Shown: positions 20,456-58,627 of the stretch, piece after piece
Layout of the letters: each line of letters begins with the position of its first letter
Numbering within the stretch: position 1 is the stretch's first letter
Assembly (NCBI GenBank): GCA_963841735.1
Contig: CAWJDT010000004.1
Location: 383,395 to 447,394 of the forward strand
Length of the DNA stretch: 64,000 nt
Source: an uncultured Actinomycetes bacterium
GTDB lineage: Bacteria; Actinomycetota; Thermoleophilia; RBG-16-64-13
Reading direction: 5' to 3'
Program-made: the position numbers and the translations under genes
Notes under the pieces: generated by a model
Database searches by the model: none
What the model saw: only the letters and a program-made list of their open reading frames with translations
What the model was told of the DNA's origin: nothing

Positions 20456-21021
20456 CTACTCGAAGGCGACCAGCAACTGACCGCGCTCGGCCTGGTCTCC
20501 CTTCTTCACAAGCACGGCCGCGACCGTCGCCTTCTTGGTGGCGTGCAGCTCGTTCTCCATCTTCATGGCCTCAAGGATGAGCACCAGATCGCCTTCGGCC
20601 ACCGTGTCGCCCACCTTGACCCGCACGTCGACGATCTTGCCCGGCACCGGAGCCCAGATGCCGTCCTTGACCTCTTCCGGAGCCGCGACGGATGGCAGCC
20701 GTCGTGCCGGCGTCGCCGTCGCCGGCAGCGGGCGCCGCTCCGGCGGCCGCCGCGGCGGCCTCGCCTGCCGGCCCCCTTGGTCACGCCGGTCACCGTCACG
20801 GGGATGCGCTCACCCGCCAGCTCGAGGACCGCGATGCCCGTGTCGGTGCAGTCGTCGACCGTGCGGATCTCGTAGGTGGTGTCGCCCACCTGCACCATCC
20901 TGCGATCGGTCCCGGGGTTGCTCACCTTGGCCGCGAAGGTCTCGCCGTCGAGGACCACCGTCCCGTCGGCCCTCGCCTCCACCTGGTGCTCTTTGCTGTC
21001 GATGTTGATCTTGAACTTCAC
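20456..21021 (-). CDS. Biotin carboxyl carrier protein (1.3S-like), frameshifted
   Basis: PVPGKI, LEAMKMENE biotinylation motif, Ala/Pro linker. Confidence 0.88.
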
Positions 21022-21023
21022 CG

Positions 21024-22609
21024 TCAGTACCTCCGCGGGCCCGAGCGGGCGGCGATGAGATCGCGGCGCCCGGCTGCGGCCCAGGCCGACCCGGGCCCCG
21101 CGAACGGGCACGTCCGCTGAGCGGTGTCCGGCCTGCGCAGGCTCGGGGAGCAGCTGCCACGACCACTGTCTGCCGAGCCGCGCAGCGCCTCGTCTTTCAC
21201 GCCCAACAGGTCGGCCAGCGGCCGCCGCCAGCGCGGCGATCTCCGCACGCGGCCTCTCGGCCCGGTCGCGGCGAGCGAAGAACTCCAGCGCCACCTGCGG
21301 GAAGAGGGCGTACGAGAGCAGGTCTTCTTCGCTGAACTTGATCCCTTGCTCCTCAAGCTCGGCCCTCCGCTTGGGCAGCTCCGGCTCGAGCGAGTCGGCC
21401 GGGCGGGTGGTGATGGGGGTCTCGTCCCCGATGCACAGCTTCTGCACCTCGAGGTCCACGGGACCCGGAGGCAGGCCGTAGAAGCCCTGCATGTAGGCCT
21501 TGGACTCCTTGGTGATCATCTTGTAGCGGCCCATCAGCACGTTCAGCGTCGCCTGAGTGCCCACGATCTGCGAGGTGGGCGTCACCAGCGGCGGGTAGCC
21601 GAACTCCTGCCTCACCCGCGGAACCTCGGCCAGCACCTCGGGCATGCGCTCAAGCTGCCCCTGCTCCTTGAGCTGAGACGAGAGGTTCGAGATCATGCCT
21701 CCCGGGATCTGCCACAGCAGCACCGCCGGATCGACCGCCGTGAAGGCGCTTTCGTAGGCCACGTACTTCTTGCGCACGTCGCGGAAGTACTCCGAGATGT
21801 CCTCCAGCAGACCGATATCCATGCCCGTCGCCCGGTCGGTGCCGGCCAGCGCCGCCACCATCGACTCCGTCGGCGGGTGCGAGGTGCCCATGGACATCGA
21901 CGAGATGGCGCAGTCCAGGATGTCGGCCCCAGCCTCGACCGCCTTCAGGTAGGCCATGGAAGCCATGCCCGACGTGTAGTGCGAGTGCATGTGCACGAGC
22001 ACGTCCGGATAGGCAGACTTGAGCGCGCTCACCAGCTCGTAGGCGTCCTGGGGGTCCAGCAGGCCGGCCATGTCCTTGATGCAGATGCTCTGGGCACCCA
22101 TCTCCGCGAGCTTGCCCGCGTAGGCCAGGAACGAGGGCACGTTGTGCACGGGGCTCTTGGTGTAGCTGATGGTGCCTTCCACCCACTTGCCGTTCTCTTG
22201 CACGGCCGCGATGGCAGCCGCCAGGTTGCGCGGGTCGTTGAGCGCGTCGAACACTCTGAAAGACGTCGATGCCGGCCTCCGCCGCCAGCCGGACGAACTC
22301 GCGCACCACGTCGTCGGCATAGTTGCGGTAGCCCACGACGTTCTGCCCCCGCAGGAGCATCTGCAGCCTGGTGTCGGGCATAGCCGCCTTGAGAGCGCGC
22401 ACCCTCTCCCAGGGATCCTCGTTCAAGAAGCGCATCATCGAGTCGAAGGTCGCCCCGCCCCACACCTCCAGCGACCAGTAGCCGGCCCGGTTGAGCTTGT
22501 CGGCGATGGGCAGCATGTCCTCGGTGCGCATGCGCGTGGCCAGCAGCGACTGATGCGCGTCGCGCAGCACTAGGTCGGTGATGTGGACAGGGTTCTTAGA
22601 GGTCGGCAT
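21024..22609 (-). CDS. Pyruvate carboxylase B / transcarboxylase 5S / OadA-like carboxyltransferase, frameshifted
   Basis: [58 protein letters not shown]. Confidence 0.9.
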
Positions 22610-22636
22610 ATGCTGGCCTCCCGATGTCAGGGGTTG

Positions 22637-24078
22637 TCACAGAGGGATGTTGCCGTGCTTCTTGGGAGGCCGGCTCTCGCGTTTGGAGGCGCAGGCCTCA
22701 AGCGCGTCGATCAGGCGCGACCGAGTGGCCACCGGCTCTATGACGTCATCCAGGTGCCCCTTCAGCGCCGCCTCGTAGGGCGACACGGAGTCCTGACGGT
22801 CGAGGGCGCCGTCGGGAGCCGCGGCGGCGATCTCCGCTGAGGGCCACGCGAAGTTGAAGTCGGCGCCTGTGTGCTTCGAACACATGACCTCGAAGCCCTC
22901 GGCGTAGGCACGATGGGTGACGATGGTCACTTTCGGCACGGTCGCCTCGCAATAGGCGTACATGAGCTTGGCCGCCTCGCGCACGATGCGTCCGTGGCCC
23001 TGCTCTTCGGCCGGCAGGAAACCCGGGCGTATCGACGAAGGTCACCAGCGGAAGGTTGAAGGCGTCGCAGAAGCGCACGAAACGCGAGCCCTTTGCTGCC
23101 GCGTCCTGATCGAGCCTGCCCTCGAGATGACCGGGCTGGTTGCCCACAATGCCGACGGCTCTGCCGGCCAGGCGGGCGAATCCGACCACCAGGTTCTTCG
23201 CCCACCGAGGCATGATCTCCATGAACCGGCCGTCGTCGACCACGCCCGCGATGATCGCGCGCACATCGTGAGAGCCGTCCGCGTCCACTCGAGCCAGCGA
23301 GTCCAGCGTCCTCATCCATGCGATCCACCGGATCACCGGTCCAGCGCAGGGGAGTCTCCTCCAGGTTGTTCTGAGGCAAGTACGAGAGCAGCTCGCGGAT
23401 GAGCTCAAGACATTCGGCCTCGTCGTCGCCGGCCAGGTGAGCGATGCCGCTCATCTCGCTCAGAGCCCTCGCCCCGCCCGCTTCCTCCACACCGATCTCG
23501 TCTCCGGCGCCGGTCGCGAGAGCACGCGGGTCGCCCAGCAGTACGTGGCCGCCGCCTCTCACCATGACCACGAAGTCCGTCAACGCCGGGGAGAAAACGG
23601 CCGAGCCCGTGCACGAGCCCATGACTGCCGAGATCTGCGGCACCAGACCGGAGGCCATCACGTTGCGCAAGAAGATCTGGGAATAGCCGCCCAGAGAGGT
23701 CACGCCCTCGTCCGCGCCGGAACCCCAAGACTGCCCGCCATCGTAGATGCCCACCAGCGGAGCGCCGTTCTTCGCGGCCAGGTCCATGACCTTGGCCAGC
23801 TTGCGGACGAACCCGTCGCCAAACGCCTCCACGCCGGCTTCGCCGTCCTGCGAGAAGACATAGACGTCCCTGTCTCCCACACGGCCGTGACCTGCGACGG
23901 CGCCTTCTACGAAGACGTCAAGCTCCACGAAGGTGTCCGGGTCGAGCAGCTGCAGGACGCGCTCGCGCGCGGTCCCGATGCCGTCCTTGCGCCGAGCGGC
24001 CATGCGCTCCGGCCCCCCACTCTGGCGGGCCTCCTGCTTCATCCGGCGCAGCTCTTCTGTACTGTCGTCGGCGACCAT
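22637..24078 (-). CDS. Acyl-CoA carboxyltransferase beta (12S/PccB-like), degenerate and frameshifted
   Basis: TARER..LLD..TFVE, SGLVPQIS, GIVGNQP, RFVRFCDAFNLP..TFVDTPGF, PKKHGNIPL. Confidence 0.85.
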
Positions 24079-25173: not shown

Positions 25174-28100
25174 CTACTGGACAGTCAGGGCCTGGCTCAC
25201 GGTCTCCCCTCTCCATTGAGGGGTGTAGTAGGAGTAGACGGCCGACGCGGCGCCCTTGCCGCGCACCGGATAGAGGGCTTTCGCCTGGAAGCTGAAGCTC
25301 ACCTTCTCGCCAGGGTCCATGTCTTCGATGTACACGATCACCTTGCGACCGGCCACGTCGTATCTCTTGATGTTGGGGTTATCCAGCAGGACCGCCAGTG
25401 ACTCCTCCACCGCTGCGAACCCGGTGGGCACCGAGATATCCAGCACCGTCATGTTGGCCTTGATGGGCTCCGGCGGATTGAAGGTGATGGTGACGTCGAC
25501 GTCTACGATGTCGTTCACAGCCACCTGCTCGGTACCGTAGTCAACGTTTATGTCGAACACGTTCGCGGTCTCCTCGGGCTCCAACAGGTTGTAGCGCAGG
25601 ACTCCCTGCACCACGGCCTCGCCCTTTCCTTCCGCCGACACCTGCACGTCGGCCCCGGCGGGGATATCAACTACCTGGGTGACGTCGTAGTTCTCCGGGA
25701 GTGATCTCCACCTTCTTCGCGACGTCGCCGGCGGTGATGGTCACGGTCATGTCGGTGTCGGTAGCCGCCGAGGTGGCGAACTGGATGAGAGCCTGCAGCG
25801 CCACCACCGTGTCCTGCGTGGTACCGAAGCCGCCCTGGCTGTTCCGTTGCCCCACCATCCACCTAGCCGCCTGCGCGGCGTTCACTCTGTCATCGCCTGC
25901 GATGAGGGCCAGCGTCGCGTAGGCGGTCGCCTCTACATCTAGACTCGGAAGCATGTCGGGCGAATACATTCCACCTTCGGGGGCCATGAACGGCTGCGGG
26001 CCACCGGGCTCCGGCATGACTCCGCCGCTGCTCCAGTGCAGTCCGTTCTCGTCCTCGATGGCTTTTGCCATGAGCTTCTGCATGGCCTCCTCCGCCCGGC
26101 CGCTCTTGCCCAATTCAAGAGCGTAGGTGACCAAGGCGAGTGCGTAGGAGTCGTCCAGAGCGTCGAGCCGGCCTTCCAGGTAGGCGAGAGCCTTGGCCGC
26201 AGCGGCGTTTTCTCCCGCCTCGAGAAGGGTCACGGCGACATAGGCCGTGAGTGTCTCCTTGCCCTGCACTCCGCCCATCATGTCTTGGTGATGCACGAAG
26301 CCCACCGACTCGAAGGACCCATCGGCCCGCTGCTTGTCGACGATCCAAGCGGCCGCGCCCGAGAGCACAGCGTCGTCGATGAAGGTGAGCTCCTTGGCCT
26401 GCGCGAAGGTCTTGAGCACGAAGGCCGTCAGCCACAGGCTGCCCGACTCGTCCTGGTCGCCGAACGCCGAGAAGCTGCCGTCGGAGCGCTGATAGGTGAG
26501 CTCGCGCTGGTAGCCCGTCACCAGCAGCATCTCCGCCTTGGCTTGAATCTCGGGCTTGAGCTGCCGAGTACCTTTGAGGTAGCTCAGGATGTACGTGTCG
26601 GGAGCGAAAAGGATCATGTTCTGCTCGCCGCAGCCGAAGGGCATCTGGAGAAGCTGGTCGAGGCCCTCGATGGTCTGCGCCAGCAGGCTGCCGGTAACGG
26701 CCACGTAGGCCCGCGCTGAATCCGACACAACTCCAAGCGGAGGCAGGACCATGCTGAGTGTCCGCTCCTGCTCCGCCTCAGGTACCACAGCGTTCTCCAC
26801 GGTCTCCCGGCTCACGCCTTCGGGCTCGACGATCATGCTCTTGATCACCGCATCCGCCGCTTCGGAGCTGCGGGCGCTCACCTCGACCAGTTGCAGTGCC
26901 GATGGACTTCGGCCTGATTGCGAACTCGGCACTGCCCACGTCGCCACCGGCGACCGTCACGGTCTTCACCGAGTCGTCGAGCAGCTCGAACCAGTCGGCC
27001 CCTTCTATCTCCACCTGTATGTCTTGAGCGGTGTCGAGGTAGTTGTAGAGAGCGATCTTGATGGGGAACTCCTCTCCGCGGATGGCGGAGTAGGGCAGGT
27101 CGGCCTGCAGGAAGAACGGCTGGAACACGGTCAGCGATGCCTCCGCTATGCCCAGACCGTACTCGGGCGACAAAGCCACCGCCCGCAGGTCCCAGGTGGT
27201 GATGGTGTCGGGCGCCTCATAGCTGATGATCGCCCGACCGGCGTCGTCGGTGAGAGTCTCGTCCCAGATCCAGGTCTCGGGGAAGTACTGGCGTACCCTC
27301 TGCACCTCGGCCAGACCGCCGGTGTCGACGGCGGCGTTGGGGCCCATTGCCGGCGGCCGTGGTCGTGGCGGTGGCCTCGCCGCTGATCCTTGGGCGGCGC
27401 CGCGCCCGCCATGTCGCCCATAGCCGCCCTCAGCGGCAAACATCATCTGAGGCGTCTCGATCTCCTTGCCTTCGGGCACGTCCTTGTTGGAGAGCACGAT
27501 GAGTCCGGCATCGCTGAAGGTCTCCTGCGCTCCAGGGATGACCAGGGTGCCGCCCATCATCCAGTCTGCGTCGTGGAGCTCGGCCTGCGGCTGCATATAG
27601 AGACGCTCCAACTCCGCGAAGACCTGGGCTAGATTGAGCCGGTTCTCGGCCAGGATGAACACCGAGTGGTCCACGGCCACCAGGCCGACTTTGGCCGGGC
27701 CCTGTGTCTGCACCTGCACATCCACCGAGGCCCCGGGCTCGACTTCGCCCGCGCTGAAGGACGCGCTCACCTCTTGGGGATACTCACCTTGAACTTCGAA
27801 CGGCAGAGAATCGGCGGCCACTTCGCTGCTGGGCAGTATCTGGTAGACCAGCAACTTGGCCGACGGAGCCATCGCCGGCGTCACCTTGAAAGAGATGTCT
27901 CCGGAGGCGCTGCCGGTAAAGACCACGCGGTCACGCGCCACCACCTCGTAGTAGAAGGTGCCCGCCTCGGCCGTGGAGACCACGTCGAAGCTGACCTTGT
28001 CGCCCACGGCGATGGTAGGCGATCCGTTCTGCTGTACGTGGACGAAACTCCCCGAGGGGGAGTACGCGGTGGTCAGCTCCTTTGAGGCCCAGGAGTCACC

Positions 28101-29374
28101 CACGCTCGCGTTTATGGACATCCGCACCGCGTCCGCGGGAGGCGTGAACTGCACCATGGCCGTCCCCCGGCTGGTTTCGACCCGCTGTGTCTCGTTTCCG
28201 ACCTCTTGGTAGTTCTCGTCGCTGTAGTACACCTCCACTGTCACCTGCGCCTCCACCGGCTCGCCGCCCGGTGTCTCAGTGACCAGGACGACGCCGAAGG
28301 GAAGTCCGGGCTTGAAAGCGGTGCTCTCGGAGATGAGCCGCAGATTCACCGAGGAAGCCGCCACCGTGACCAACTCGGTGGTCTTCTGCTCGTAGCCGGT
28401 GGACTTCTCCACCAGCGGCGATGTCGAGCCTGCACGTTGCCCAGGCCACCGGCCTCAGGCACCCCGGCGACGTAGCCGGCAGGTTCGATGCTGAAGTCAC
28501 CTTCGCCGTCGATCTGAGCCGTGTAGGTGGCGTATACCTCCCACTCACCCACGTACCGCGAGGCCGTAACCCGCAGTTCGCCCTCGACTGCCCGGCCGTA
28601 GCTGTATTTGCTTGTGACATGCCCGGTGATGGGCTCGTCCACCAAGAACCAGTCTTTCGTGAGCTCAGCGGTCACCTCGTACTTGGGTAGCACGTACTTC
28701 TCCACCCGCACGTCCAGCTCGGTGGTAGCGTCGCCCGCATAGGCGGTAAGCTTCCAGACCCCCAGATTGGGCTCGGTCGATAGGGGCAGCTCGGCCGTCA
28801 CCGTGCCGTACTCGTCGGTGGCTAGGGTCTGCTTGGAGATCTTGATGCCCTTGGCATCCTGGATCTCCAGAGTGGCCTGTGTCTGCACCGGCTTCAATTC
28901 AGAATCGAGGGCCACGAGCCTTACCAGCATGGTCTGCCCTGGCTTGTAGATGGGCTTGTCGGTTTCGAGGAAGAGCAATGTCCCGGCCTGGATCTGCACA
29001 GCCGTGCTCTCGGAAAAGCCATTGCCCGTGACTCTTACCTTGTATTCCCCCGGACTCACCGGGGGGAGTTCGAGCGTGACGGTGCCCTTGCCATCGATGC
29101 CACCGGTGGCCGAGGCGATGGTCTTGCCCTTGTCGAGAACGGCCACAGTCACTCCGCTCCTGGCGGAAGCGTCACCCCTGAACAGCGTGAACGAGAACGA
29201 GGCCGATTCCCCCGACCGGAGCACCTGGGGAACCAGAGCCACGTAGCCGTCGACCTTGTCGTTCCACGACGACGAGACGTTGGTCGGCCCGGGGTCGGAC
29301 GACTCACACCCCACGACGATCGCGATGACCGCAAGCACAGCGCATAGAAGTGCAAGGACCCTACGGCGACTCAT
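25174..29374 (-). CDS. Alpha-2-macroglobulin/thioester-containing lipoprotein (CD109/C3-like), frameshifted
   Basis: Lipobox IVVGC, ETDKPIYKPGQ, YVLPKYEV, RQYFPETWIW, PDTITTW, PFGCGEQNM, SLWLTAFV, GGFGTTQDT, C-terminal receptor-binding-type domain. Confidence 0.92.
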
Positions 29375-29696
29375 GACCCACCTCCCGGTATTGGATGTCT
29401 GCTCTGACGGGGTCTGCCCCGTCGCGGTTTCCTCCACCTCAAGGCCACTGTTCTTGTTGCGCATCTCGAAACAATGCAGGCTAGCCAAGGCAGGACCGTT
29501 GGGATCCCAGGGACCAGCATGATGGCGGAGGCGCTGGTTGCCCGGCGGATACCCCACACCGCGCGACTCCACCACCTGCAAACCCATCCAAGCATTAGCC
29601 TCAGGGCTGTTGGGAAGCGAGCCAACTGGCCGGCCGCGCTACATCATCAGATGTCGCCTCGTCCTACCGCATATTGTGATTACTCTTGCGTGAGCC

Positions 29697-30074
29697 TCAA
29701 GGCTTCTTGGTCGACTCCTTCGCCGGCGCCGCCTTCTTCGCCTTCTTGGCCTGCTTCGCGTCCCGCTTCGCCTTCTTGGCCGCTAGTTTCGCCTTCTTGG
29801 CCGCGAGCTTGGCTTTCTTCGCTTCCGCCTTTGCCTTCTTGGCGGCTTTCTTCGCCATCTTCGCGGCCTTCTTCGCCCTCTTGGCGTCCTGCGCCGGCTT
29901 CTTCGCGATCTTCCTGGCGACGCTCTTCTCGGCGCCCGACGACTTCTTATTCGTCGCTGTGGCGTTGTCATCCAGCTTCTGCTCGGCGGTTGCGTACGTC
30001 TCGTCCTTAGACTTGGGAGTCTCCTTGAGCAGCTTCGCCACCATGTCGGTGATCGTCTTCAGCGAACTATTCAC
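29697..30074 (-). CDS. Lys/Ala-rich histone H1-like basic protein
   Basis: AKKAK repeats; AGGAGG RBS before GTG. Confidence 0.65.
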   Translation of the reverse strand: MNSSLKTITDMVAKLLKETPKSKDETYATAEQKLDDNATATNKKSSGAEKSVARKIAKKPAQDAKRAKKAAKMAKKAAKKAKAEAKKAKLAAKKAKLAAKKAKRDAKQAKKAKKAAPAKESTKKP

Positions 30075-30270
30075 CACACCTCCTACGACAAGGTCTCGCC
30101 CGGGCCGCCCAAGCATATCAATGCCGCGCCATCTCACAACAACGCGCGAAGCTAATTGCTCAAGGAAAGCCACCGGAAAGGCTTTTCCCTATGAAAGGAG
30201 GCGATCAGGCTTTACTATGGGTGCCGTTTGCTCACGGTCGGGAATGACCTAGCCAAAGGGAGGGGCGGGA

Positions 30271-31770
30271 ATGCCGTCAGACGAGACGCACCAGGGTGCC
30301 GGGACTGTACCGCGCCACGACGCACCAAGCGGAGAGGTGCCAATGGACGAGTCGCCCGCCACTGCAGCGGTCAAGTACTTTCTGTCGAACGGCCCCGCGA
30401 CCGTAATCTACGTGCAGGAAGCCGACAGATGGCACAGCAGCATCTCGGGTGGAGCCCTTCTGAGGCAAGAGCCCGGCACAATCCCCGAGGAATTGCTGAG
30501 CCGGCTCGAGGAGATCGACGAGACCCAAGCAAACGCACTCACGCAAGGTAGTCCGCTGGTCGAGGCGCCAGCGAGGTCCACCCTGAACGGCCCGTCGGGC
30601 CCTTCGGGGTTAGGTGGATGGATGGTCCTGCCCATAGTCATGCTCTTCCTGACGCTGATCGTGTCCGCATCGGCACTATTCGCTTCGCAGCTCCCGCTAC
30701 TACGAAGCGACGTATGGTCCGACCTCACCACATCAGGCACAGCCGCATACCACCCTCTGTGGGCGCCGACTATAGTGTTCGACACCATCGTTACCGCCGT
30801 AATGTTTGTGTTCCCGCTATTGCTCCTTGTGCTCATCTTCCGGAAGCGGCAGGCAGCAACCAATCTCGTCATCGCGTTCGCCTTCTTCATACTCATCGCC
30901 AGAGTGCTGGACTCGGTGGCCGTGATCCCCCTGGCCTTGGACTCCCTCCGCCAAGCGGGGTACCTCGACGCGGCGCACGACGCGACCATCACCGCGCTGA
31001 CGGGGCTGGTGGCAACACTGGTCCTTGCGGCCATCTGGATCCCCTACTTCTTCCTGTCGAAGCGCGTTAAGAACACCTTCACGCGGGGAAAAGCCATCGC
31101 ATCGGCGCCCACTAAGCCCGCGGCAGGGAGGTCTCGCCTAATCTTGGCATGGACCTTCGGCGTGGGCGTGACAGCCGCGATAGTACTGATTGTTCTGCTG
31201 TCCTGGGGCACCGCGACTCTTGCAGGCGAGATCGGCGCGGTCACGACTCAGTCCGGAGACATCAAGACGTACACAGACCCCGAATACGGCTACAGTTTCG
31301 ACTACCCGGCCAGCTGGGTGCTGGAGACCGGCGGAAACTCTGTGGGCGACAGCGTCGGCAATCCTCCGGGCAGCGCTGGAGTGTTTGACCCCGACGGCGC
31401 ATTCGGCGGCGCCTACGCCCTAGATATGGCCACGGCAACAGCAAGCCGCTCAGGTTTCTCCTTCGAGGAATCCATGATGCCGAACCTGAAGATCGCCCTG
31501 GAGGACTACATTGCCGACCCTTCGGGTCCGTTCGGTACCGCGACGATAGCCAAGCCTCTCTCGGAGACCACGATGGCGGGAATGAGGGGATTCTCGGTCA
31601 CCCTCGCCGACACCCTGGCGGAGACTCCGGTGACGGTGACCCTCTACTTCTTGCTCACCGGGACTCTGGAGTATGACTTGACGGTCCAGGCGGCCACCAA
31701 GGACTGGCAGGCGTACCAGGCGACCTTGGATGACTTCCTGGCCAGCTTCAAGCCCGGCCCCCAGCAATAG
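30271..31770 (+). CDS. DUF2569-like membrane protein with C-terminal PsbP-like domain
   Basis: GLGGW..L...IWIPYF..SKRVKNTF; Y.D..YGYSFDYPASW. Confidence 0.7.
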   Translation: MPSDETHQGAGTVPRHDAPSGEVPMDESPATAAVKYFLSNGPATVIYVQEADRWHSSISGGALLRQEPGTIPEELLSRLEEIDETQANALTQGSPLVEAPARSTLNGPSGPSGLGGWMVLPIVMLFLTLIVSASALFASQLPLLRSDVWSDLTTSGTAAYHPLWAPTIVFDTIVTAVMFVFPLLLLVLIFRKRQAATNLVIAFAFFILIARVLDSVAVIPLALDSLRQAGYLDAAHDATITALTGLVATLVLAAIWIPYFFLSKRVKNTFTRGKAIASAPTKPAAGRSRLILAWTFGVGVTAAIVLIVLLSWGTATLAGEIGAVTTQSGDIKTYTDPEYGYSFDYPASWVLETGGNSVGDSVGNPPGSAGVFDPDGAFGGAYALDMATATASRSGFSFEESMMPNLKIALEDYIADPSGPFGTATIAKPLSETTMAGMRGFSVTLADTLAETPVTVTLYFLLTGTLEYDLTVQAATKDWQAYQATLDDFLASFKPGPQQ

Positions 31771-37885: not shown

Positions 37886-38374
37886 TCACTCCGCGTTGAT
37901 TTGATCTTCTGCGGTGTGTCCATCCTCCACCGGGCCTCGGTCTGCTTGGTCATTCGCCCTCCTGAGAATCCCCTCGTCGATGTCGTCGAGCACCGTGTGC
38001 TCGCGGGCCGGGCCTCGCGCTATCCAGAGGGGCTCCTGCCCGCTCAGGATCGCCTTCACCGCACCCCACGCCCGGCCCTGGGGTGCAGGCGCCCGGTAGC
38101 CCTCACGGATGATCTGACGGTAGCGGTCCCATCGAGCCCGGCCGTGGTGCCGGCAGTGGAGCATCATGTGGCACACGTAGCAAAAGCCGTAGGCGCCGAT
38201 GTGGTCACCAAAGGGCGCGGAGTAGTCTTCGCTGTGGGCCTCGACGATGCCCTCGGTTTGGCCGCAGGCCTCGCAGACTTCTGGCGGGCGGCGGCGCCCG
38301 GCCGCCACCTCGCCTTTCAGCCAACGTAGAGCCCGGTAGCGTTGCCCGGGCTCGAATCCGTTGTAGGAATTCAC
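37886..38374 (-). CDS. HNH-like Zn-binding endonuclease
   Basis: CEAC...AHSEDYS.P...FCYVCH...H; GGGGAG RBS before GTG. Confidence 0.6.
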   Translation of the reverse strand: MNSYNGFEPGQRYRALRWLKGEVAAGRRRPPEVCEACGQTEGIVEAHSEDYSAPFGDHIGAYGFCYVCHMMLHCRHHGRARWDRYRQIIREGYRAPAPQGRAWGAVKAILSGQEPLWIARGPAREHTVLDDIDEGILRRANDQADRGPVEDGHTAEDQINAE

Positions 38375-38685
38375 ATCAAACTCCCCACTTTTTGGGGCTT
38401 TATTGCACTGTTTTCGCCCCTTTACTCTAGCGCCCTCACCCGGCAATGCAAGCCGCAACAGGCTTGTTTGCAGGTCTTTATCTCAATCCGGGGTGACTGC
38501 AGGATCGTCTCCCAGGCGTTGGGGACTTTTGGCTATTTACGAGGCTAGTAAGGCGGGGGTGGGCGAGCGGTTCAAAATCACGTGACGACCCCCCCGCCCC
38601 TCTGCTTGCCGGGCTCCTCGATACAGAAGATCCTCCACACCGGGGAAGGAGAAGAGCGGGCAAGGCGGCCACGGCTCACTCTCCC

Positions 38686-39255
38686 TTAGAGCCCGATGGC
38701 ATCCCGGAGCTTGTCCACTACACCAGGGCCGCAAGCGTCGGCGCGGCAACCAGCGGCGGTGCGCTCCATCTGTAGCCTATGCAACTCAACCCGCACCCGC
38801 TTCAGGGCTTCAAAGGCATCCTCTCGGGCGATGAGGCTACGCGCGATACGCTTCTTCAACTCGGAGAGTTGGGCCTCCATCTTGGCGTTGGTCGGGACGA
38901 GCTCACCGATCTGGTTAATGAAGATGGCGTCGCTGTCAGCGAGTGCGTTCTTCGCTTGGATGGCCTCCCACCAGGCCAGGTCCGCCAGCTCAGCGATCTC
39001 TGCGGCTTCGCTGTCGCGGGCTACGGCCTTCTCGATCTGCCCGTCGAAGCGCTCGCGGGCGCGCCTCACATGCTCCGGCGTAGTGTCATCGGGCAGGTGG
39101 ATGTTCTCAGGGTTGACTTGCAGGCCCTCGGCCCAGCAGAAGAAGCCGAGCCGTTCCTGTCTACACAGGCCTCGACTGAGTGCACGCCCACAATACGGGC
39201 AGGTCTCTGCACCGCTCGTCGCCGTGGCCGCCTTGTTTTCCGGGGCTCTCATCAT
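38686..39255 (-). CDS. Hypothetical protein with CPYC motif and coiled coil
   Basis: ATGA-coupled to the protease gene. Confidence 0.6.
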   Translation of the reverse strand: MMRAPENKAATATSGAETCPYCGRALSRGLCRQERLGFFCWAEGLQVNPENIHLPDDTTPEHVRRARERFDGQIEKAVARDSEAAEIAELADLAWWEAIQAKNALADSDAIFINQIGELVPTNAKMEAQLSELKKRIARSLIAREDAFEALKRVRVELHRLQMERTAAGCRADACGPGVVDKLRDAIGL

Positions 39256-40163
39256 GCGAATACCTCCTTGAAGAACGTGGTTTCATACGCCTGTGCCTCG
39301 GGTTCGCCGTACCCCTTGCAGTGGCTTACCTCGTGAGCGACCACTCTGACGAGCTCGCGACCGCGCAGGTCTGCGCGAAGCCACAGCTCTCCGCCGTAGC
39401 CTTGGTACGCGCGCCCAAGGCTCTGACCCGTCCGGTCCTTGTACCAGAACACCGCGGGCGGATCGATGCCCAGGTGGTCAGCCGCGAGCTTCACAGCCGC
39501 CTCGGCTAGTTCCCGTATCCGTGCCGGGATGCGCCCCTCGGGCACGGGCTCGTGATGGTCATCTGCGTCTTGCACGGCGGAGCCGCGGCAAGACATCAGG
39601 CTGATCTTGACCATTCTGAGGTACTCGCGCTCAAGATCGCCACGTGCCTGCTCATCCCCGAAGAGGCTGCCTCGTATGGCCAGCATCTCCGCCCGGGTCG
39701 AGTCCTTCATTGCGAGGGTCCGCGTGCCGATGCTCGCGCCCTTCAGGACCGGCGAGACCTCATGCACGTCGACGCTGCTGATGATCCGGGCTCTGCGCCC
39801 TTCCCACTGTCCCTGCTTCGCCACGACGTTCTCGAGGCTGTAGCTCCACTCCCCCAGCTCCCCCAGCTCTTTCACCACAGTGAAGGTCTCGCGGCCGGCC
39901 TGGGTGTCCATGAAGAAGCGGCCGGTGAGAACGGCCTCCCGGTCGGTTGCGCTGATCGTGCCCTTGCCCACCGGGAGCGCGCCCGTCCAGCTTCCGTGAC
40001 CGTAGGCGGAGATACGGACGGGGGAGCCAGACTTGAAGGCCCCCGGCAGAATGACATCCCCGTCGCGGTCGATAACATTGAGCGTGGAGAAGACAGCAGT
40101 GACGGTCCCTTCTGCCTCGGACTTCACCTCCACCCCGCGAAGCGTCTTGTGTTCCAACTTCAT
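39252..40163 (-). CDS. HK97-family prohead protease fused to an HExxH metallopeptidase
   Basis: D.DGDVI.PGAF, YGH, EWSY, EVSPVL.GA; C-terminal VVAHEVSH...E. Confidence 0.85.
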   Translation of the reverse strand: MKLEHKTLRGVEVKSEAEGTVTAVFSTLNVIDRDGDVILPGAFKSGSPVRISAYGHGSWTGALPVGKGTISATDREAVLTGRFFMDTQAGRETFTVVKELGELGEWSYSLENVVAKQGQWEGRRARIISSVDVHEVSPVLKGASIGTRTLAMKDSTRAEMLAIRGSLFGDEQARGDLEREYLRMVKISLMSCRGSAVQDADDHHEPVPEGRIPARIRELAEAAVKLAADHLGIDPPAVFWYKDRTGQSLGRAYQGYGGELWLRADLRGRELVRVVAHEVSHCKGYGEPEAQAYETTFFKEVFA

Positions 40164-40167
40164 CACC

Positions 40168-40578
40168 TCACTTTCGTCTTGCCAATACCGAGTCCGTGCT
40201 GATCTTCCAGTGGCCGCTCTCTCGCCTGCCGAGCAGATCACCAGAGTCGAGCAGCCGGCGTATGTAACGATCCGAGCAGCCCAACACGTCCGCGGCCTGC
40301 GCAGTGGTCATGATTGCGTCCACCACTTCTGATTCTGGCAGCGGTTCCGCGGCGGCAGGTTCCGGAGTTCCGCGGCGGACCTCTTCGACCCATGCCCTCC
40401 CGGCCATCCTGATCGCGTCTGCGACGTCCTCAAGTATCAGCCGCAGGTGCGGCGGATACTCCTCTATCCGCTCTCGGATCTCCCGTTGAGCAAGCAACCC
40501 GGCGATGGCCACAGCCGGCCAGCCCTCGACAAGAGCGGCGGAGCGAATGAGACTACGGGGGGCGTCGGGACTGCTCAT
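40168..40578 (-). CDS. Protein with C-terminal excisionase-type HTH
   Basis: MTTAQAADVLGCSDRYIRRL...G.L..R...HWKI. Confidence 0.75.
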   Translation of the reverse strand: MSSPDAPRSLIRSAALVEGWPAVAIAGLLAQREIRERIEEYPPHLRLILEDVADAIRMAGRAWVEEVRRGTPEPAAAEPLPESEVVDAIMTTAQAADVLGCSDRYIRRLLDSGDLLGRRESGHWKISTDSVLARRK

Positions 40579-40599
40579 CGATCTGTCTCCCTCGATTCT

Positions 40600-40697
40600 T
40601 TGTTAGTTGTTAGCCCATATATAGAAAGGAGGGGCTAACTAACATTGCCCTGCCTCCTTTCTTAGCGGTAATGTTCCCGTTGTTAGCGGGCTAACAA
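40600..40697. other. Putative replication origin (iterons)
   Basis: TTGTTAG direct and inverted repeats around an ATATATA core, just downstream of the helicase. Confidence 0.55.
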
Positions 40698-40706
40698 GTC
40701 GGAGTC

Positions 40707-41972
40707 TCACGGTGTTGCCTCCGGGGCTAGACTCCATAGGCCACGGCTCTCGTTGACCACCAGGCCGCGGCGCTTGAGTTTCGTGAGTGCGACTCGCACC
40801 GCTCCGGGCGTGGTGCCTGTCGCCTCGGTCAGTCCCGAGACACTGAGCGGCCCGTGCTCCAGCTCCCCAAGGATCACGCTCACGGTGGCGCCCTGTTCGG
40901 TCAGCAGGTCATCGGCCGCCACGGTTTCCACCACGATGGCGTCGCGCTCGAATATGAGCCTCATCCCGACTGGCGCCGGCCGCCCCATGTTGTGTTTCCG
41001 AGGGAACATCCCCACCTGGAGCACGTGCTGGTCGCTCGTCTCCTGCGGTCGGATTTCCCACGTGGCGCGAGACAGGTTCTCAAAGTAGACGCTCCCGATA
41101 GGGAGGCGGTGCTGGTTCTCTTCGCGGCGGTCTGCCTTGGTCGTATGGGTCAGAATCCCTACCGCGGCGTTGGTGGAAGCCGTCACCTTGCGGAGCGCGT
41201 TGAAGAATTGGATGGCGAGCTCGGCACTCATGATGTCTCCCCCGCAAGCCGGGCCGGCAGAGTCGACGATAACGAGCCCTATCTCGTGCTTCGCTATGGT
41301 CTTCGCGATCTCTGAGGTCTCGTCAAGGATCGAACCTAGACAGCGGCGATAGAGCGGATACCGGAGAGTGGCGCCGATAAGTGTCTGCTCCAGGCCGTTC
41401 GCCAGTAGCGTGCAGCGCCGGTCTGCCTCTGCTTTTGTTACCTCCCAATCGAGATAGAGCACGTTTTCCCGGCGTGTGGGCTCACCTTGAAAGGGCAGGC
41501 CGTTTTGCACGAGCAGCGCGACATACATGGCCAGAAGGCTCTTGCCCGACGCGCCGGGCGCGTACCATGCCACGGGTAGGTGGTCTAGCAGTAAGGGGCG
41601 GAGCAGGTACTCAACCTCGGTGCTCGCGACCGGGCAGAGGTACTCAGCCGGGCTGCCCTCTTCCTCGCGCTCCAGGATCGTTCGACAGGACTCTTCTATC
41701 ACCCGGTCCCAGCTGTTCGCCTCAGCGGGTAGTCTCTGTTCAAGGTCGCGTGAGAGTTCGCGCCGGCTGCGGCCGGCTGCCAGGTTCAGGTTCCCGTGGT
41801 GGAGCGGGAGCTGCTCCCCGCTAGGTGTGGTGGCAGTGACTCTCACCCGCGCCTGTACGCGGCCGTCTGAGTGGCTGCGGAGGCGGTCTGCCTCAAAGAC
41901 TACCTCCGCGGTTGGTAGTGACCACTGAACGGCATAGCAGCCCGGCGCGGCTGTAACTCGCGGGGGATTCAT
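40707..41972 (-). CDS. RepA/AAA_25-type helicase with C-terminal wHTH
   Basis: APGASGKS, VLYLDWE, LVIVDS, ILTHTTK, IGS; ATGA-coupled start. Confidence 0.8.
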   Translation of the reverse strand: MNPPRVTAAPGCYAVQWSLPTAEVVFEADRLRSHSDGRVQARVRVTATTPSGEQLPLHHGNLNLAAGRSRRELSRDLEQRLPAEANSWDRVIEESCRTILEREEEGSPAEYLCPVASTEVEYLLRPLLLDHLPVAWYAPGASGKSLLAMYVALLVQNGLPFQGEPTRRENVLYLDWEVTKAEADRRCTLLANGLEQTLIGATLRYPLYRRCLGSILDETSEIAKTIAKHEIGLVIVDSAGPACGGDIMSAELAIQFFNALRKVTASTNAAVGILTHTTKADRREENQHRLPIGSVYFENLSRATWEIRPQETSDQHVLQVGMFPRKHNMGRPAPVGMRLIFERDAIVVETVAADDLLTEQGATVSVILGELEHGPLSVSGLTEATGTTPGAVRVALTKLKRRGLVVNESRGLWSLAPEATP

Positions 41973-42256
41973 CGTACCCATGCCCGCACCGGCCCCTTGT
42001 GCGACCGGGGGCGCTGTAGTCGAGCCTGGCAGCAGTCTATACGGTCGTCCGCCCACTGTTGAGCGGTCATCGGGAAGGTTCCCCGCCACACTATGGCCCG
42101 CGGGTCCCGAGCGACGATCCTAGCTGCCTGGAATATCTCGTTGAAGAGTTCACACGGAGTCAACTCTGCTAGGTCTTCGTTGTAGACCCGGAGACACTCT
42201 TCGAGGCTGACTGCGGCGTTGGGCAGTTTCGCGACCGCTCGCCTTGCCCGGGTCAC
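41969..42256 (-). CDS. Hypothetical island protein
   Basis: 95-aa ORF coupled to the helicase. Confidence 0.5.
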   Translation of the reverse strand: MTRARRAVAKLPNAAVSLEECLRVYNEDLAELTPCELFNEIFQAARIVARDPRAIVWRGTFPMTAQQWADDRIDCCQARLQRPRSHKGPVRAWVR

Positions 42257-42291
42257 TGTGCGTACCCTTGTTCGACGGGTAGCCAGGCCAT

Positions 42292-42498
42292 CTAGCGGCC
42301 CGCCACCGGCCGGCCCTCAGAGGTTGACGTCTGAGTCTGGCTGGCCGCCCACGTCCGCACTACCTCCGGATCGTAGCGAACGGCGCCGTTGATCTTCAAA
42401 TACGGGGGCCCGCAGCCTCGCCACCTCCACTGGTTTATGGTCTGCTCTGCCAGCCGCAGAAAATTGGCTGCCTCTTGCGAAGTCCATCGTGGCTCCAT
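42292..42498 (-). CDS. AlpA/excisionase-like HTH protein
   Basis: T..EAA.FL.L...T...WR..G.GPPYLK...AVRY. Confidence 0.88.
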   Translation of the reverse strand: MEPRWTSQEAANFLRLAEQTINQWRWRGCGPPYLKINGAVRYDPEVVRTWAASQTQTSTSEGRPVAGR

Positions 42499-42596
42499 GA
42501 CATATCCTCCCTAGTGTGTCCATCTAGGGAGGATTGTCCACCCCGGCCAGAGACCTATAAAATCCGACAGAAGACGACGGGTCGTGTAGTCAATTA

Positions 42597-43295
42597 TCAG
42601 TTCCTGTGACGGGGCGATGCATCTCGCGAGCCTGGCGGCCTACCAGGCGATCGGACCGCGCACAAGTCGAGCCCCACGAGCTTCGCAACTTCCTTCACGC
42701 GCTTTTGGACGTTGTCCATCTGCGAGGGTTCGGGCGCGAGATCGGTCCACTTCTCCCGCAACACCTGATAGCGGACAAGCCAGTCGAGGTGCAGGGAAAA
42801 CTGAGGCTTGGCGCGATCATGGACCCAGCCTTGTCTACGCAGCTCGCGCTCCTGTTCAAGGTAGGCTCGTTTGGTCTCCGTCAGTGACATCCGCGTCGGG
42901 TCCAAGTCAGGACTGGTGGCCGTTTCGCCATTCATATTGATGCTAGCGCCTGGAAGCATCCAGTCGCGCAGCCTCCAAGCGGGCACCCACTCCCACAGCA
43001 GCAGGGTCTCGCCCAACACAGAGAGTAACCATGGCGGCGCCGCGTTGAAGGCGTACTTTCGGGGCTCCTCTGGTTTGGCCCAGGCCCGCAGTGCATCCGC
43101 GAGGTTCCTATCCTGTGGGTTCGCCCAAGTGAGGGAACGCACCACTTCCTCGTCGACACGAGATCCGGACTCGGCCGCCACAGCGCCCAACTCCCGGAGG
43201 ATGCCGGGGACCTTTTCCCGCACCATCTCCAGGAAGGCTCTCCGGTATTGCGCGGTTTGCAGCTCCGGAAAGATGAGAGACAGGTCGCGGCTCAC
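42597..43295 (-). CDS. Hypothetical protein coupled to the integrase, possible regulator
   Basis: 4-nt overlap with int; C-terminal helical region and GRP motif. Confidence 0.6.
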   Translation of the reverse strand: MSRDLSLIFPELQTAQYRRAFLEMVREKVPGILRELGAVAAESGSRVDEEVVRSLTWANPQDRNLADALRAWAKPEEPRKYAFNAAPPWLLSVLGETLLLWEWVPAWRLRDWMLPGASINMNGETATSPDLDPTRMSLTETKRAYLEQERELRRQGWVHDRAKPQFSLHLDWLVRYQVLREKWTDLAPEPSQMDNVQKRVKEVAKLVGLDLCAVRSPGRPPGSRDASPRHRN

Positions 43296-44701
43296 TTCCC
43301 AGCCTCCTGCGAGCCTGGCATGGCCACCACTTCCCCCCCGGGCTTGCCCTCCAAGACCGCCGCAATATGGCCCGCCACGATCCCCGCGGCCTGCCGTAGT
43401 GGATCGTTGGCCAGGTGAGCGTACCTCTGTGTCGTGGCGGCTTGTGTGTGCCCCAGCAAGGCCCCGATCGTCGGGAGACTCAGACCGTCGCCGGCGCCAA
43501 CACTGGCGAAGCTATGGCGCAGGTCATGGATTCTCAGAGTGGACAGGTCGACACGGTCCTTCTTCTCCAGCTTGCCCTCGGCTTGCTGTTTGTCCTGTTG
43601 TTCATTGACCTTCGCCTTCAGCCGGCGCCAGGGACCGTTCAGGTCAGCGATATGGTCCGGGCCGCGCTCACCTGGGCACACCCACGGGCTACCCTTCTTC
43701 CGGGGCGCGTCGTCTAGCAGCTTGATAGCCGGCGGTCCGAGTACAATCACCTTTGCGCCCGTCTTGCTGTCCGGCAGGCGTAGTAGACCGCGCTGGAAGT
43801 CCACGTGCTCCCACCTGAGCGTGAGGATCTCGCCCAGCCGGGCACCGGTGAGCAGCAGTAGTCTCAGAGCCAGGATGGCCGCCGGGTGTTCGGGCTCGAG
43901 CTTGCGGCGCACTGTCCGCTCCTTGCCGTCGCGGCCGATGGTCTTCACCATCATTGTCGGTGTCGCAGGTAGTCGCTCCATCTCCCGCAGGGCCTCACCT
44001 AGCCGCGCAAGTTCCCTCTCCGACAGGTAGCGTTCGCGCTTCTTCTCTTTGAACTTGCCGAGATGCCGGCAGGGATTCGAGCCTTCAGGTCTCCAACCCC
44101 ACAGCTCGGCAAGGTTCATCATCTTCGACAACAACGCGACCGTCCGGTTCGCCTGTGTGGGCTTGTCGCGCAGCTTGTGCTGAAGGCGGGCCACATCCTC
44201 GCGGGTGATGCTGGCCACCGTCTGGCCCTCAAAGGTGGGCTTGATGTAGGTCTCCAGCTTCTGGGTATCATCGGCTATGCCCTTCGGCCCCTTGCGGACC
44301 TCAGCCCATTCGTGGAGGTAGCGCTCGGATAGATCCTCGATCGTGGGCTCTTCGGCCGCTTCCTTCTTCCGCTCGATCTTCTCTTCCGCTGGGTTCTCCC
44401 CACGGGCCACCGCCGCAAGCAGCTGTTGAGCCTGAGATCGCGCCTGCTCCGCGGTGACGACGCCGTGCCTTCCGATAGTCACCCTGCGCGTCTTGTTCGC
44501 GCCGTCACGGTACTGGACTAGGTAGCTCTTGACGCCGGACGCGGTGATGCGAACACCGAAACCTGCGAGTTGGTCATCCCATATGAGCACATCGCGGTTT
44601 GGATCGCCCGGCAGCTTGCCGAGACTTGATAGCTTGGCGTCGAGTTCTTGGATCATCGCGTCGTGCTCGGCGTGGTCTATGACCCGTTTCGTCAGCTTCA
44701 T
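43292..44701 (-). CDS. int: Tyrosine integrase with arm-DNA-binding domain
   Basis: IWD..L.GFGVRI..SG.KSY; TGAR.GEI, K, HDLRHSFAS, LLGH, TQRY. Confidence 0.95.
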   Translation of the reverse strand: MKLTKRVIDHAEHDAMIQELDAKLSSLGKLPGDPNRDVLIWDDQLAGFGVRITASGVKSYLVQYRDGANKTRRVTIGRHGVVTAEQARSQAQQLLAAVARGENPAEEKIERKKEAAEEPTIEDLSERYLHEWAEVRKGPKGIADDTQKLETYIKPTFEGQTVASITREDVARLQHKLRDKPTQANRTVALLSKMMNLAELWGWRPEGSNPCRHLGKFKEKKRERYLSERELARLGEALREMERLPATPTMMVKTIGRDGKERTVRRKLEPEHPAAILALRLLLLTGARLGEILTLRWEHVDFQRGLLRLPDSKTGAKVIVLGPPAIKLLDDAPRKKGSPWVCPGERGPDHIADLNGPWRRLKAKVNEQQDKQQAEGKLEKKDRVDLSTLRIHDLRHSFASVGAGDGLSLPTIGALLGHTQAATTQRYAHLANDPLRQAAGIVAGHIAAVLEGKPGGEVVAMPGSQEAGK

Positions 44702-44875
44702 TTGACCTCCTGATTCCTGGTCAGCATGTTAGCCGCGTAAGCAGGGCGTAAGCACAAGGCACAGAAATGCTCATATCTGCGTAGATGATAAAGGAACTTG
44801 CGAGAAGGTGCAATGTGGCGTGCAAGCCCGCTGCGCAAGCGGGTAATTGACCTGCAACCCGCTTATACCCTGAGG

Positions 44876-44947
44876 AGCCGGTGAGGGGACTTGAACCCCT
44901 AACCTGCTGATTACAAATCAGCTGCTCTACCATTGAGCTACACCGGC
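44876..44947 (-). tRNA. tRNA-Thr(TGT)
   Basis: GCCGGTG acceptor stem, GCTGA-TTTGTAA-TCAGC anticodon arm, GGTTCAAGTCC T arm; CCA not encoded. Confidence 0.97.
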
Positions 44948-45271
44948 CCGAGATGCGGTACACGCTCCGCTGCGATGCCGCGGCAGCCCCGCCGCCGCGA
45001 CGCTGTGATCCGGCGTCGCGCTGGGCGCCCGCCGGGAGATTTTACCGCGCCTAGCGACAGTCGTCGGGACGGTCTTGACTCAGCGGGCGACGGTCGTCGG
45101 CTGAGTCTTCGCGAGCCGGGCCGGGCTCGTCGGGATTCCGGCGCCGGTCGTGGCCGCTCAACGGTCACCCAGACGCACCAAGGGCCCCGCGGCTTAAGTC
45201 GCCGGGCCCTTGTCCCGCAGCATATACCTCATCCGCCGACGGCCTTGGCGCCGTCCCGCGAACTGGTAGTC

Positions 45272-45931
45272 CTACAGTAGCACCCGCCTGCTTTCTAGGT
45301 GCAATGTAACCTTGCGCTTGATGCGTTGGAGCGCGTTGTCAACTGTCTTGGTGTCGTGACCGATATGGTCGGCGATGGCCTCGTAAGAGTTGCCTTCCAT
45401 GTAGTACTTGAGCACAAGGGACTCCAGCGGGCTCAGCAGTCGCAGCAGACAGTCGGTCAGGCTGACACACTCTTCGGAGCTTATGACCTGCTGCACCGGA
45501 TCGCTAGTGCGCCCCGACGGGATGATATCGGCCAGCGTACGGCTCTCGTAGTCGGAACTGGAGGGCGAATGACTGAAGCTCAGGTACGTATTGAGCGGCA
45601 CGTGCTTCTGCCGGGAGGCAGTCTTGATAGCGGTGATGATCTGCCGCGTGACGCAGAGCTCGGCGAAGCTGCGGAAGGAGGTGCTACGGCCGTACTCGTA
45701 GTCGCGGATGGCCTTGTAGAGCCCTATGTAGCCTTCTTGAATGAGATCGTCACCATCGCCACCGGCCAAGAAGTACGAATTGGACTTCATCCGCACGAAC
45801 TGCTTGTAGCGAACCAGGATCCGGCGGGTAGCCTCCGTCTCCCCACTCTTGGCCAACGCCACCAGTTGCTCATCGCTGAGCTCCGGTGCTGCCTTATCGG
45901 CTAGCTTTAAAGCTAGTGCCGCGCTCTCCAT
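45272..45931 (-). CDS. sigH: RNA polymerase sigma factor SigH (Spo0H-type)
   Basis: SYFLAGGD.DDLIQEG, SFRSFAELCVTRQIITAIK.A.RQKH.PLN, DNALQRIKRK. Confidence 0.92.
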   Translation of the reverse strand: MESAALALKLADKAAPELSDEQLVALAKSGETEATRRILVRYKQFVRMKSNSYFLAGGDGDDLIQEGYIGLYKAIRDYEYGRSTSFRSFAELCVTRQIITAIKTASRQKHVPLNTYLSFSHSPSSSDYESRTLADIIPSGRTSDPVQQVISSEECVSLTDCLLRLLSPLESLVLKYYMEGNSYEAIADHIGHDTKTVDNALQRIKRKVTLHLESRRVLL

Positions 45932-45959
45932 CCCTATCCTCCCGCTCCGGCGTTGCGGG

Positions 45960-46502: not shown

Positions 46503-46513
46503 GGCGGCCGCGC

Positions 46514-47449: not shown

Positions 47450-47480
47450 CGACGCGGTCGTCGGCCGGCGGGCGCCTTTG

Positions 47481-48885
<1,405 letters not shown>

Positions 48886-58617: not shown

Positions 58618-58627
58618 CGAATCTCTC

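Follow-up and report, generated by a model that had tools for sequence, protein, structure and literature searches.

Why would a bacterium encode a protein resembling complement C3 and CD109, and what could such a protein do there? The question is raised by a gene on the minus strand of contig CAWJDT010000004.1, from an uncultured, soil-type actinobacterium of the Thermoleophilia lineage RBG-16-64-13, in the stretch of 64,000 nucleotides that we analyzed (the window). Read through its frame breaks, it is a single lipoprotein gene of ~1,395-1,400 codons, close to the 1,395 residues of its orthologue P0001, to which the window protein is 90% identical. We propose that the product is probably a monomeric-type, animal-like alpha-macroglobulin or thioester-containing protein (TEP), held by a lipid anchor on the outside of the cytoplasmic membrane, where it would trap proteases. 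We favor this reading because the domains typical of complement are absent, the bait region is hypervariable and the inhibitors A2M, CD109 and A2ML1 are the closest proteins both by sequence and by fold.

Across the pieces of the gene, the MG2, MG3, MG4, A2M_BRD, A2M, TED_complement and A2M_recep models all exceeded their Pfam cut-offs (Table 1), and the intact orthologues P0001 and P0006 gave an identical domain set. This chain of domains and the CXEQ motif place the predicted protein in the alpha-macroglobulin/TEP superfamily. No Pfam match to the ANATO or NTR/C345C domains was found in the four window pieces, in P0001 or in P0006. The motifs RQYFPETWIW, PDTITTW and FQPFFLQADLPYSAIRGE are all encoded in minus-strand frames; these, the PFGCGEQNM thioester motif, the lipobox and the C-terminal receptor-type domain all lie within the stretch to which a preliminary description of this DNA had assigned them, and its estimate of about 1400 residues agrees with the read-through length.

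The predicted N terminus is that of a bacterial lipoprotein. The ATG at position 29374 is preceded, 7-8 nucleotides upstream, by the Shine-Dalgarno sequence GGGAGG. A hydrophobic stretch then leads to the lipobox, MSRRRVLALLCAVLAVIAIVVG followed by Cys (VVG-C), which makes Cys23 the predicted lipidated residue. Lgt (in two copies) and LspA were found in the same genome, so that both the signal and the enzymes expected for a lipoprotein appear to be present.

In the thioester domain (TED), the GCGEQ motif is followed by the segment FESVGFVHHQDMMGG, whose second His lies 113 residues past the thioester Cys, in line with the spacing of roughly 110 residues noted previously. A 75-residue query around this His aligned without gaps to C3dg in HMMER, the window sequence f-v-h-H-q-d-m-m-g-g lying over p-v-i-H-q-e-m-i-g-g of C3; the His of mosquito TEP1 fell at the same position, and in the A2M alignment of the PDB sequence search the residue lay over Asn1088. 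The earlier pairing of this His with that of VIHQEMIGG in C3 thus holds at the level of sequence. In PMC7864068, Asn1088 of A2M was mutated to His as the equivalent of the His of C3, C4B and A2ML1. By position, the residue would therefore be that of the hydroxyl-reactive TEPs (C3, C4B, A2ML1 and TEP1). Among the best 120 homologues, to which all family counts of 120 refer, both GCGEQ and the His were found in 120.

The preliminary description took the His as a sign that the protein may tag glycans or surfaces. This step is weak because a protease inhibitor has the same residue. A2ML1 is a monomeric inhibitor that uses its His1084 to conjugate proteases, and the resulting hydroxyl reactivity extends capture to proteases without accessible amines (PMC7864068); monomeric inhibitors depend on covalent conjugation (PMC7864068; PMC9156758). 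By itself, the His is therefore a weak argument for glycan tagging.

The bait region was examined in a conservation profile of 103 aligned rows (102 homologues and the window read-through). The segment between the A2M_BRD domain and RQYFPETWIW had the lowest mean conservation of the protein (0.37) and its greatest length variation, with a spread of 30 residues over 63 columns, between flanks at 0.75 to 0.93. A variable segment between conserved flanks is the expected signature of a bait, and this one sits at the A2M position, between the BRD and MG7 domains, where it would serve as the trigger of the trap. The preliminary description had reported a low-complexity bait at this place, which is borne out for the family, and had quoted a Pro/Arg-rich sequence for it, which is not. 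Frame 0 of positions 27291-27455 reads GGYGRHGGRGAAQGSAARPPPRPRPP, which is Pro/Arg-rich. The other two frames translate as AAMGDMAGAAPPKD (frame 1) and GEATATTTAAGNGP (frame 2), sequences similar to the P0001 bait and to the baits rich in Thr and Ala that are found in the family. The Pro/Arg-rich version is thus largely an out-of-frame reading of the real bait.

Among proteins of known structure, the inhibitors come closest, before the complement factors C3 and C4. With the TED piece as a phmmer query against PDB sequences, human A2M scored best (E = 1.9e-79, 270 bits), followed by CD109 (5e-69) and A2ML1 (1.4e-67); a frog-type A2M was also matched, TEP1 (~1e-44), C4 (1e-40) and C3 (5e-35) were weaker matches, and none of the 51 distinct PDB sequences at E ≤ 0.001 was a bacterial A2M chain. 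An AlphaFold model of the TED (mean predicted local distance difference test score, pLDDT, of 74) gave CD109 as its best Foldseek match, then A2ML1 and A2M, and reached TMt values (TM-score) of 0.80-0.83 against isolated C3d and C4d. Bacterial A2M was absent from the 46 Foldseek rows listed (ranks to 49).

On these grounds the protein may work as follows. After export, Cys23 would be lipidated by Lgt and LspA, as the lipobox and the presence of both enzymes suggest. The Cys and Gln of GCGEQ would form an internal thioester buried against MG8, a step suggested by homology and by the strict conservation of the motif. A foreign protease would then cut the exposed bait, some 40 residues rich in Thr, Ala, Gly and Pro, whose position and variability fit this role. 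By analogy with A2ML1, the ensuing conformational change would expose the thioester to attack by the His, and the acyl-imidazole so formed could react with hydroxyls or amines of the protease. The protease would thereby become bound covalently to the cell surface, and an envelope without an outer membrane would be protected.

The chemistry that suggests such a trap would also suit a complement-like tagger or covalent adhesin, in which, after activation by proteolysis or by other means, the His-assisted thioester would couple the anchored protein to glycan hydroxyls of foreign or prey cells, of particles or of the bacterium's own wall, making it an opsonin-like marker rather than an inhibitor. 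An invariant catalytic-type His aligned with those of C3 and TEP1 is what such a tagger would need, the predicted lipobox would hold it at the surface, and the beta-propeller, the C-terminal leucine-rich repeats (LRR) or the N-terminal cadherin domain of some relatives hint at target binding; the discussion in PMC7864068 leaves complement-like membrane deposition possible even for A2ML1. However, anaphylatoxin and C345C/NTR domains were not found, nor was a processing site of the convertase type; hypervariability of a bait in the A2M position typically goes with the sensing of many proteases, and A2M, CD109 and A2ML1 come ahead of C3 and C4 by both sequence and fold. The neighborhood has no conserved receptor or effector partner, either, and we consider tagging an unlikely function.

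Several points weigh against the protease trap. The AlphaFold model has a pLDDT below 50 around the thioester segment, and the 81 loci examined share no conserved partner gene that points to a pathway. We infer thioester formation, bait cleavage, lipidation and the oligomeric state alike. The opsonins C3 and C4B are marked by the His, too, which makes deposition on surfaces possible, and it is also possible that the gene is a real pseudogene in this single genome.

Among individual animal proteins, human A2ML1 (PDB 7q1y) is one of the closest parallels: it has the same domain order (MG, bait, MG7, CUB/TED, MG8) and combines GCGEQ with a His at the acyl-imidazole position, and by analogy the window protein would presumably be a monomeric trap in need of covalent capture. 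In contrast to A2ML1, the window family has essentially no Cys beyond those of lipobox and thioester, so that a disulfide scaffold is missing; exactly two Cys were counted in 67 of 102 homologues. A2ML1 is secreted, whereas the bacterial protein has a predicted N-terminal lipid anchor, and the animal A2M/TEP units that we compared (A2ML1 not among them) are only 32-35% identical to it. Human CD109 (PDB 8s3o, 9fx2 and 9fx3) is likewise a membrane-tethered TEP of ~1,400 residues without ANA or C345C domains, and JGI labels bacterial relatives "CD109 antigen". CD109 is anchored by a C-terminal glycosylphosphatidylinositol, whereas the window protein would be anchored through its N-terminal lipobox; glycosylation and disulfide bonds also set CD109 apart from the window protein, as does its place in the separate animal clade, judged by insect units named "CD109" as a proxy. 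In PMC12927315, CD109 is presented as a protease inhibitor of the cell surface.

Human A2M shares the thioester context P(F/Y)GCGEQNM and the position of the bait, but forms a tetrameric cage, carries Asn1088 in place of the His (PMC7864068) and has an MG8 that binds LRP1; for the A2M units of fish and frog, 13-15 Cys were counted in the C-terminal part that was compared. C3, C4B and mosquito TEP1 share GCGEQ and the His with the window protein and align to it without gaps around V-x-H-Q/K-(D/E)-M-x-GG. Unlike C3 and C4, the window protein lacks anaphylatoxin and NTR/C345C domains and has a hypervariable bait instead of a specific convertase site, and its scores to them are lower than those to the inhibitors.

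The known bacterial alpha-macroglobulins are more distant. Type I proteins (YfhM/ECAM of E. coli and Sa-A2M of Salmonella), which have extra N-terminal domains, are bacterial protease traps that are likewise lipoproteins with a thioester, and YfhM has a lipobox as well. However, YfhM is a protein of 1,653 residues with a CLEQ thioester, the Pfam domains bMG1, bMG2, bMG3, bMG5, bMG6 and bMG10 and a gene beside pbpC, and none of these bMG domains matched the window protein or its orthologues P0001 and P0006. The TED_complement model gave 33 bits with YfhM, against 295 bits for the window TED piece and 287 bits for P0001, and YfhM was 23% identical to P0001 over 268 residues (38 bits). In the alignment used for the tree, the window protein was 19.7% identical to YfhM (638 C-terminal columns aligned), 32-35% to the animal units (~800 C-terminal columns) and 43-90% to its prokaryote relatives. 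Judged by sequence, it resembles animal TEPs much more closely than YfhM and does not nest within canonical bacterial A2M, in agreement with the earlier view that it is not of the E. coli type. The type II protein MagD of Pseudomonas aeruginosa belongs to the same superfamily and has a bait region. According to PMC5764988, type II proteins lack the CXEQ thioester and act within a six-gene mag operon, whereas the window protein has the thioester motif and no conserved operon partner. NCBIfam contained no family model for the window protein or for YfhM, and the ESM Atlas gave only small, unnamed TED clusters.

The genomic context agrees with this separation. Its two neighbors are a convergent gene for an alpha/beta hydrolase and a gene for a Lys/Ala-rich protein; neither is pbpC or another penicillin-binding protein (PBP) gene, as noted before. 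BiPBP_C had no match in the source genome, which is 89.7% complete, and the sole Transgly match lies on another contig (C1). Across the 81 loci, no neighbor family occurred more than eight times, and PBPs were absent from the 14 most recurrent families. The recurrent neighbors, each in at most eight loci, are housekeeping genes (ABC-F, sigma-70 region 2, SpoU, carboxyltransferase, RmuC, CysRS and others). The gene thus stands alone, unlike the type I systems with pbpC and the type II systems with the mag operon. A sigma-70 region-2 (ECF-like) gene lies upstream on the same strand in 8 of the 81 loci (L027, L029, L032 and others), too rarely for a partner.

The window copy is not contiguous. 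It is spread over four stop-to-stop frames (28346-29638, 26778-28454, 25667-26956 and 25174-25740), and tblastn with an intact orthologue returned four collinear high-scoring segment pairs in three frames. DNA alignment with orthologues located single-nucleotide insertions (Table 1) and further indel events inside the bait at 27348-27416. With four or more 1-bp insertions, and slips in the bait, inside 4.2 kb, and with a patchy occurrence (12 of 41 relatives' genomes, including the source genome G000, and 1 of 300 other genomes of the phylum), the gene could be a decaying pseudogene whose frameshifts are real and whose protein this genome no longer makes. However, when 32 unrelated orthologous proteins from the loci of relatives were compared with this genome, 8 of them matched it in more than one frame as well. 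One is the presumably functional clpC (56130-58686, minus strand), broken into two frames that overlap at 57676-57800. One frame encodes Clp_N and the first AAA domain, the other AAA_2 and D2-small; a split housekeeping gene points to an assembly with indel errors.

Other assemblies point the same way. The source assembly consists of 8 contigs, yet its marker completeness is 89.7%; in two further assemblies of the same genus, of 8-10 contigs, the copy is fragmented as well, whereas several same-genus or same-family assemblies of 80-210 contigs contain intact frames of 1,395-1,686 residues. The G004 and G014 copies have open frames of 793 and 1,023 residues without internal stops, and the G010 copy has stops. 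In the window, every frame segment is free of in-frame stops and the identity to P0001 is high; the GC content at third codon positions (GC3) of the four pieces, 0.77-0.83, is similar to that of neighboring genes. Because unrelated genes are broken as well, clpC is split and orthologues elsewhere are intact, the four insertions and the bait slips are probably assembly errors rather than gene decay, and we regard a pseudogene as quite improbable. The window copy is thus, most likely, an error-ridden assembly of an otherwise ordinary family member and adds nothing beyond membership.

Gene calls from this assembly, with 8 of 32 frame-broken, warrant care. The carboxylase genes at 20566-23041 (minus strand) look fragmented, too: in a frame of 134 residues, the Carboxyl_trans match is limited to profile positions 339-412, and the first 115 profile positions are missing from an HMGL-like/PYC_OADA protein.

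The family to which the gene belongs is large. Of the 7,999 candidates that were scored in a search for longer homologues, 5,652 matched at E ≤ 1e-10. Most of the best 120 homologues have ~1,350-1,470 residues, 18 being shorter partial entries, and a lipobox-like N terminus was present in 86 of the 99 full-length homologues with a Met start. Where names are given, JGI uses "CD109 antigen" and NCBI "alpha-2-macroglobulin family protein", the latter for Actinobacteria, Thermoleophilia, Gaiellales, Dehalococcoidia and Chloroflexota metagenome-assembled genomes (MAGs). A pattern search of species-representative genomes gave 478 matches, of which 472 encode relatives; of these 472 loci, the best 80, all from MAGs, comprise 53 from Chloroflexota (42 Dehalococcoidia), 25 from Actinomycetota, one from Acidobacteriota and one unclassified. 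The distribution is uneven at closer range. Twelve of 41 closely related genomes match at E ≤ 0.001, counting the source genome; without it, the matches are confined to a single family, f1 (11 of 24 genomes), and six other families have none in 16. Two of 301 genomes match in a phylum-wide sample that includes the source genome, as do 19 of 251 in the class of the Dehalococcoidia genome G329.

A second homologue search was restricted to proteins of more than 1,445 residues. It showed relatives with additions, namely C-terminal LRR repeats (P0213-P0233), a PQQ/BamB-like propeller (P0205/P0206) or an N-terminal cadherin domain (P0162). P0236 belongs with these variants, and one member is labeled Candidatus Altiarchaeota. 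The LRR fusions recall the LRR partners of mosquito TEP1.

The relation to animal proteins was addressed with a tree of 53 rows and 807 columns (LG+C20 with posterior mean site frequencies, PMSF; quick search; support by SH-like approximate likelihood ratio test, SH-aLRT, only). It comprised 34 prokaryote rows chosen by hand for spread (238 proteins fetched), 18 animal units (fish and frog A2M-like, dipteran "CD109"/TEP-like) and YfhM as outgroup; P0205 (split match), all C3, C4 and C5, sponges and cnidarians were left out, and human A2M, CD109, A2ML1 and C3 were compared through the PDB searches only. The window protein grouped with P0001 (support 100), in a subclade that holds rows labeled Actinobacteria and Gaiellales. 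The 18 animal units formed one clade (SH-aLRT 100) on a stem of 1.47, to the exclusion of all 34 prokaryote rows, and the window protein does not fall inside this animal TEP clade. The unit of the NTR-labeled fish model P0234 grouped with the A2M-like units.

These data also bear on whether animal DNA contaminates the bin or whether the gene was transferred very recently from an animal host. Such an origin could be suspected from the matching Pfam models, which are built on animal TEPs, and from the automatic JGI name. Against it, the gene has a GC content of 63-65% and a GC3 like those of the flanking bacterial genes, bears a bacterial lipobox and Shine-Dalgarno sequence, and is embedded in its contig among clpC, ABC transporter genes and similar ones. 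The identity to animal units is just 32-35%, the family usually has 2 Cys per protein as opposed to 13-15 in the compared part of vertebrate A2M units, and the animal units form their separate clade. Base composition, bacterial signals, contig context, identity, Cys count and tree thus led us to reject eukaryotic contamination, whose probability we take to be negligible.

How the bacterial and animal families are rooted is less clear from the tree. The YfhM outgroup branch has a length of 10, and in this quick tree the root falls among LRR-fused prokaryote rows. A tree constrained to prokaryote monophyly was 5.9 log-likelihood units better, and the approximately unbiased (AU) test did not reject it (p-AU 0.66), so that no conclusion follows on animals nested within prokaryotes or on the direction of transfer.

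Table 1. Features of the thioester macroglobulin gene, in window coordinates
Feature	Position	Strand	Basis
Whole thioester macroglobulin lipoprotein gene	25174..29374	-	Stop-to-stop frames; tblastn with intact orthologue; re-translation
Signal peptide and lipobox, MSRRRVLALLCAVLAVIAIVVGC	29306..29374	-	Re-translation
MG2 domain	28724..28975	-	Pfam PF01835, 7e-21
MG3 domain	28487..28699	-	Pfam PF17791, 6.8e-12
Two 1-bp insertions (~28432 and ~28415), shifting the frame	28415..28432	-	DNA alignment with four orthologues
MG4 domain	28101..28328	-	Pfam PF17789, 2.6e-5, barely above cut-off
A2M_BRD bait-region domain (MG6 with insert)	27651..28022	-	Pfam PF07703, 2.9e-25
Hypervariable bait region	27291..27455	-	Conservation profile; three-frame translation
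A2M (MG7) domain with PETWIW, PDTITTW and FQPFF..DLPYS.IRGE	27009..27275	-	Pfam PF00207, 4e-27
1-bp insertion, frame break	~26894	-	DNA alignment with four orthologues
Complement-type thioester domain (TED)	25781..26701	-	Pfam PF07678 TED_complement, 6.4e-88
GCGEQ thioester motif, within PFGCGEQNM	26621..26635	-	Re-translation
Catalytic-position His	26288..26290	-	HMMER alignments to C3dg, TEP1, A2M N1088
1-bp insertion, frame break	~25700	-	DNA alignment with four orthologues
C-terminal MG8 / A2M_recep "receptor-binding" domain	25207..25461	-	Pfam PF07677, 1.9e-17
Stop codon	25174-25176	-	Re-translation

Other genes of the window deserve brief mention. Directly upstream of the macroglobulin gene, a 163-residue frame (29700-30188, minus strand) has a Lys/Ala-rich tail, AKKAKLAAKKAK, and no Pfam match; its product looks histone-like or nucleoid-type. 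Divergent from the macroglobulin gene, a DUF2569 membrane protein with a weak C-terminal PsbP-like stretch is encoded at 30253-31767 on the plus strand. Farther away, within 38000-48000 and especially at 40710-44728 on the minus strand, a tyrosine integrase (Phage_integrase and Arm-DNA-binding) adjoins an AAA_25/MarR protein; this stretch contains several open reading frames without Pfam matches, has an AT skew of about -0.1 and may be an integrated element.

Reviews published up to 2026 treat bacterial alpha-macroglobulins as a Gram-negative feature, "structurally quite distinct" from the animal proteins, of two types (CXEQ with PBP1c and the thioester-less Mag) and probably acquired from metazoan hosts (PMC5764988, PMC9156758, PMC12874980, PMC12939704, PMC13069473). 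No description of animal-type TEPs in Actinomycetota or Chloroflexota was found among open-access papers and bioRxiv preprints. Databases already annotate members of the family, which is apparently unstudied. The gene in the window represents a third kind, with animal-type domain models, an animal thioester context and a catalytic-position His, and with neither disulfides nor a conserved partner gene, in uncultured Dehalococcoidia, Thermoleophilia-like Actinomycetota, Acidobacteriota and one MAG labeled Altiarchaeota. Being disulfide-free and unglycosylated, the protein should be easily expressed and would provide a simple model of the His-assisted thioester in a minimal TEP. Proper sampling of the family would make the direction of transfer between bacteria and animals testable. 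One tentative and, in our estimate, rather doubtful idea is that the lipoprotein family described here, present in Chloroflexota, Actinomycetota and Acidobacteriota and in at least one MAG labeled as archaeal, is the prokaryotic stock of the animal thioester proteins, A2M, CD109, the TEPs and ultimately C3. If so, the "complement chemistry" of GCGEQ and His would have arisen in bacteria as a defense of the envelope, and the textbook transfer of A2M from animals to bacteria would be reversed, at least for this branch.

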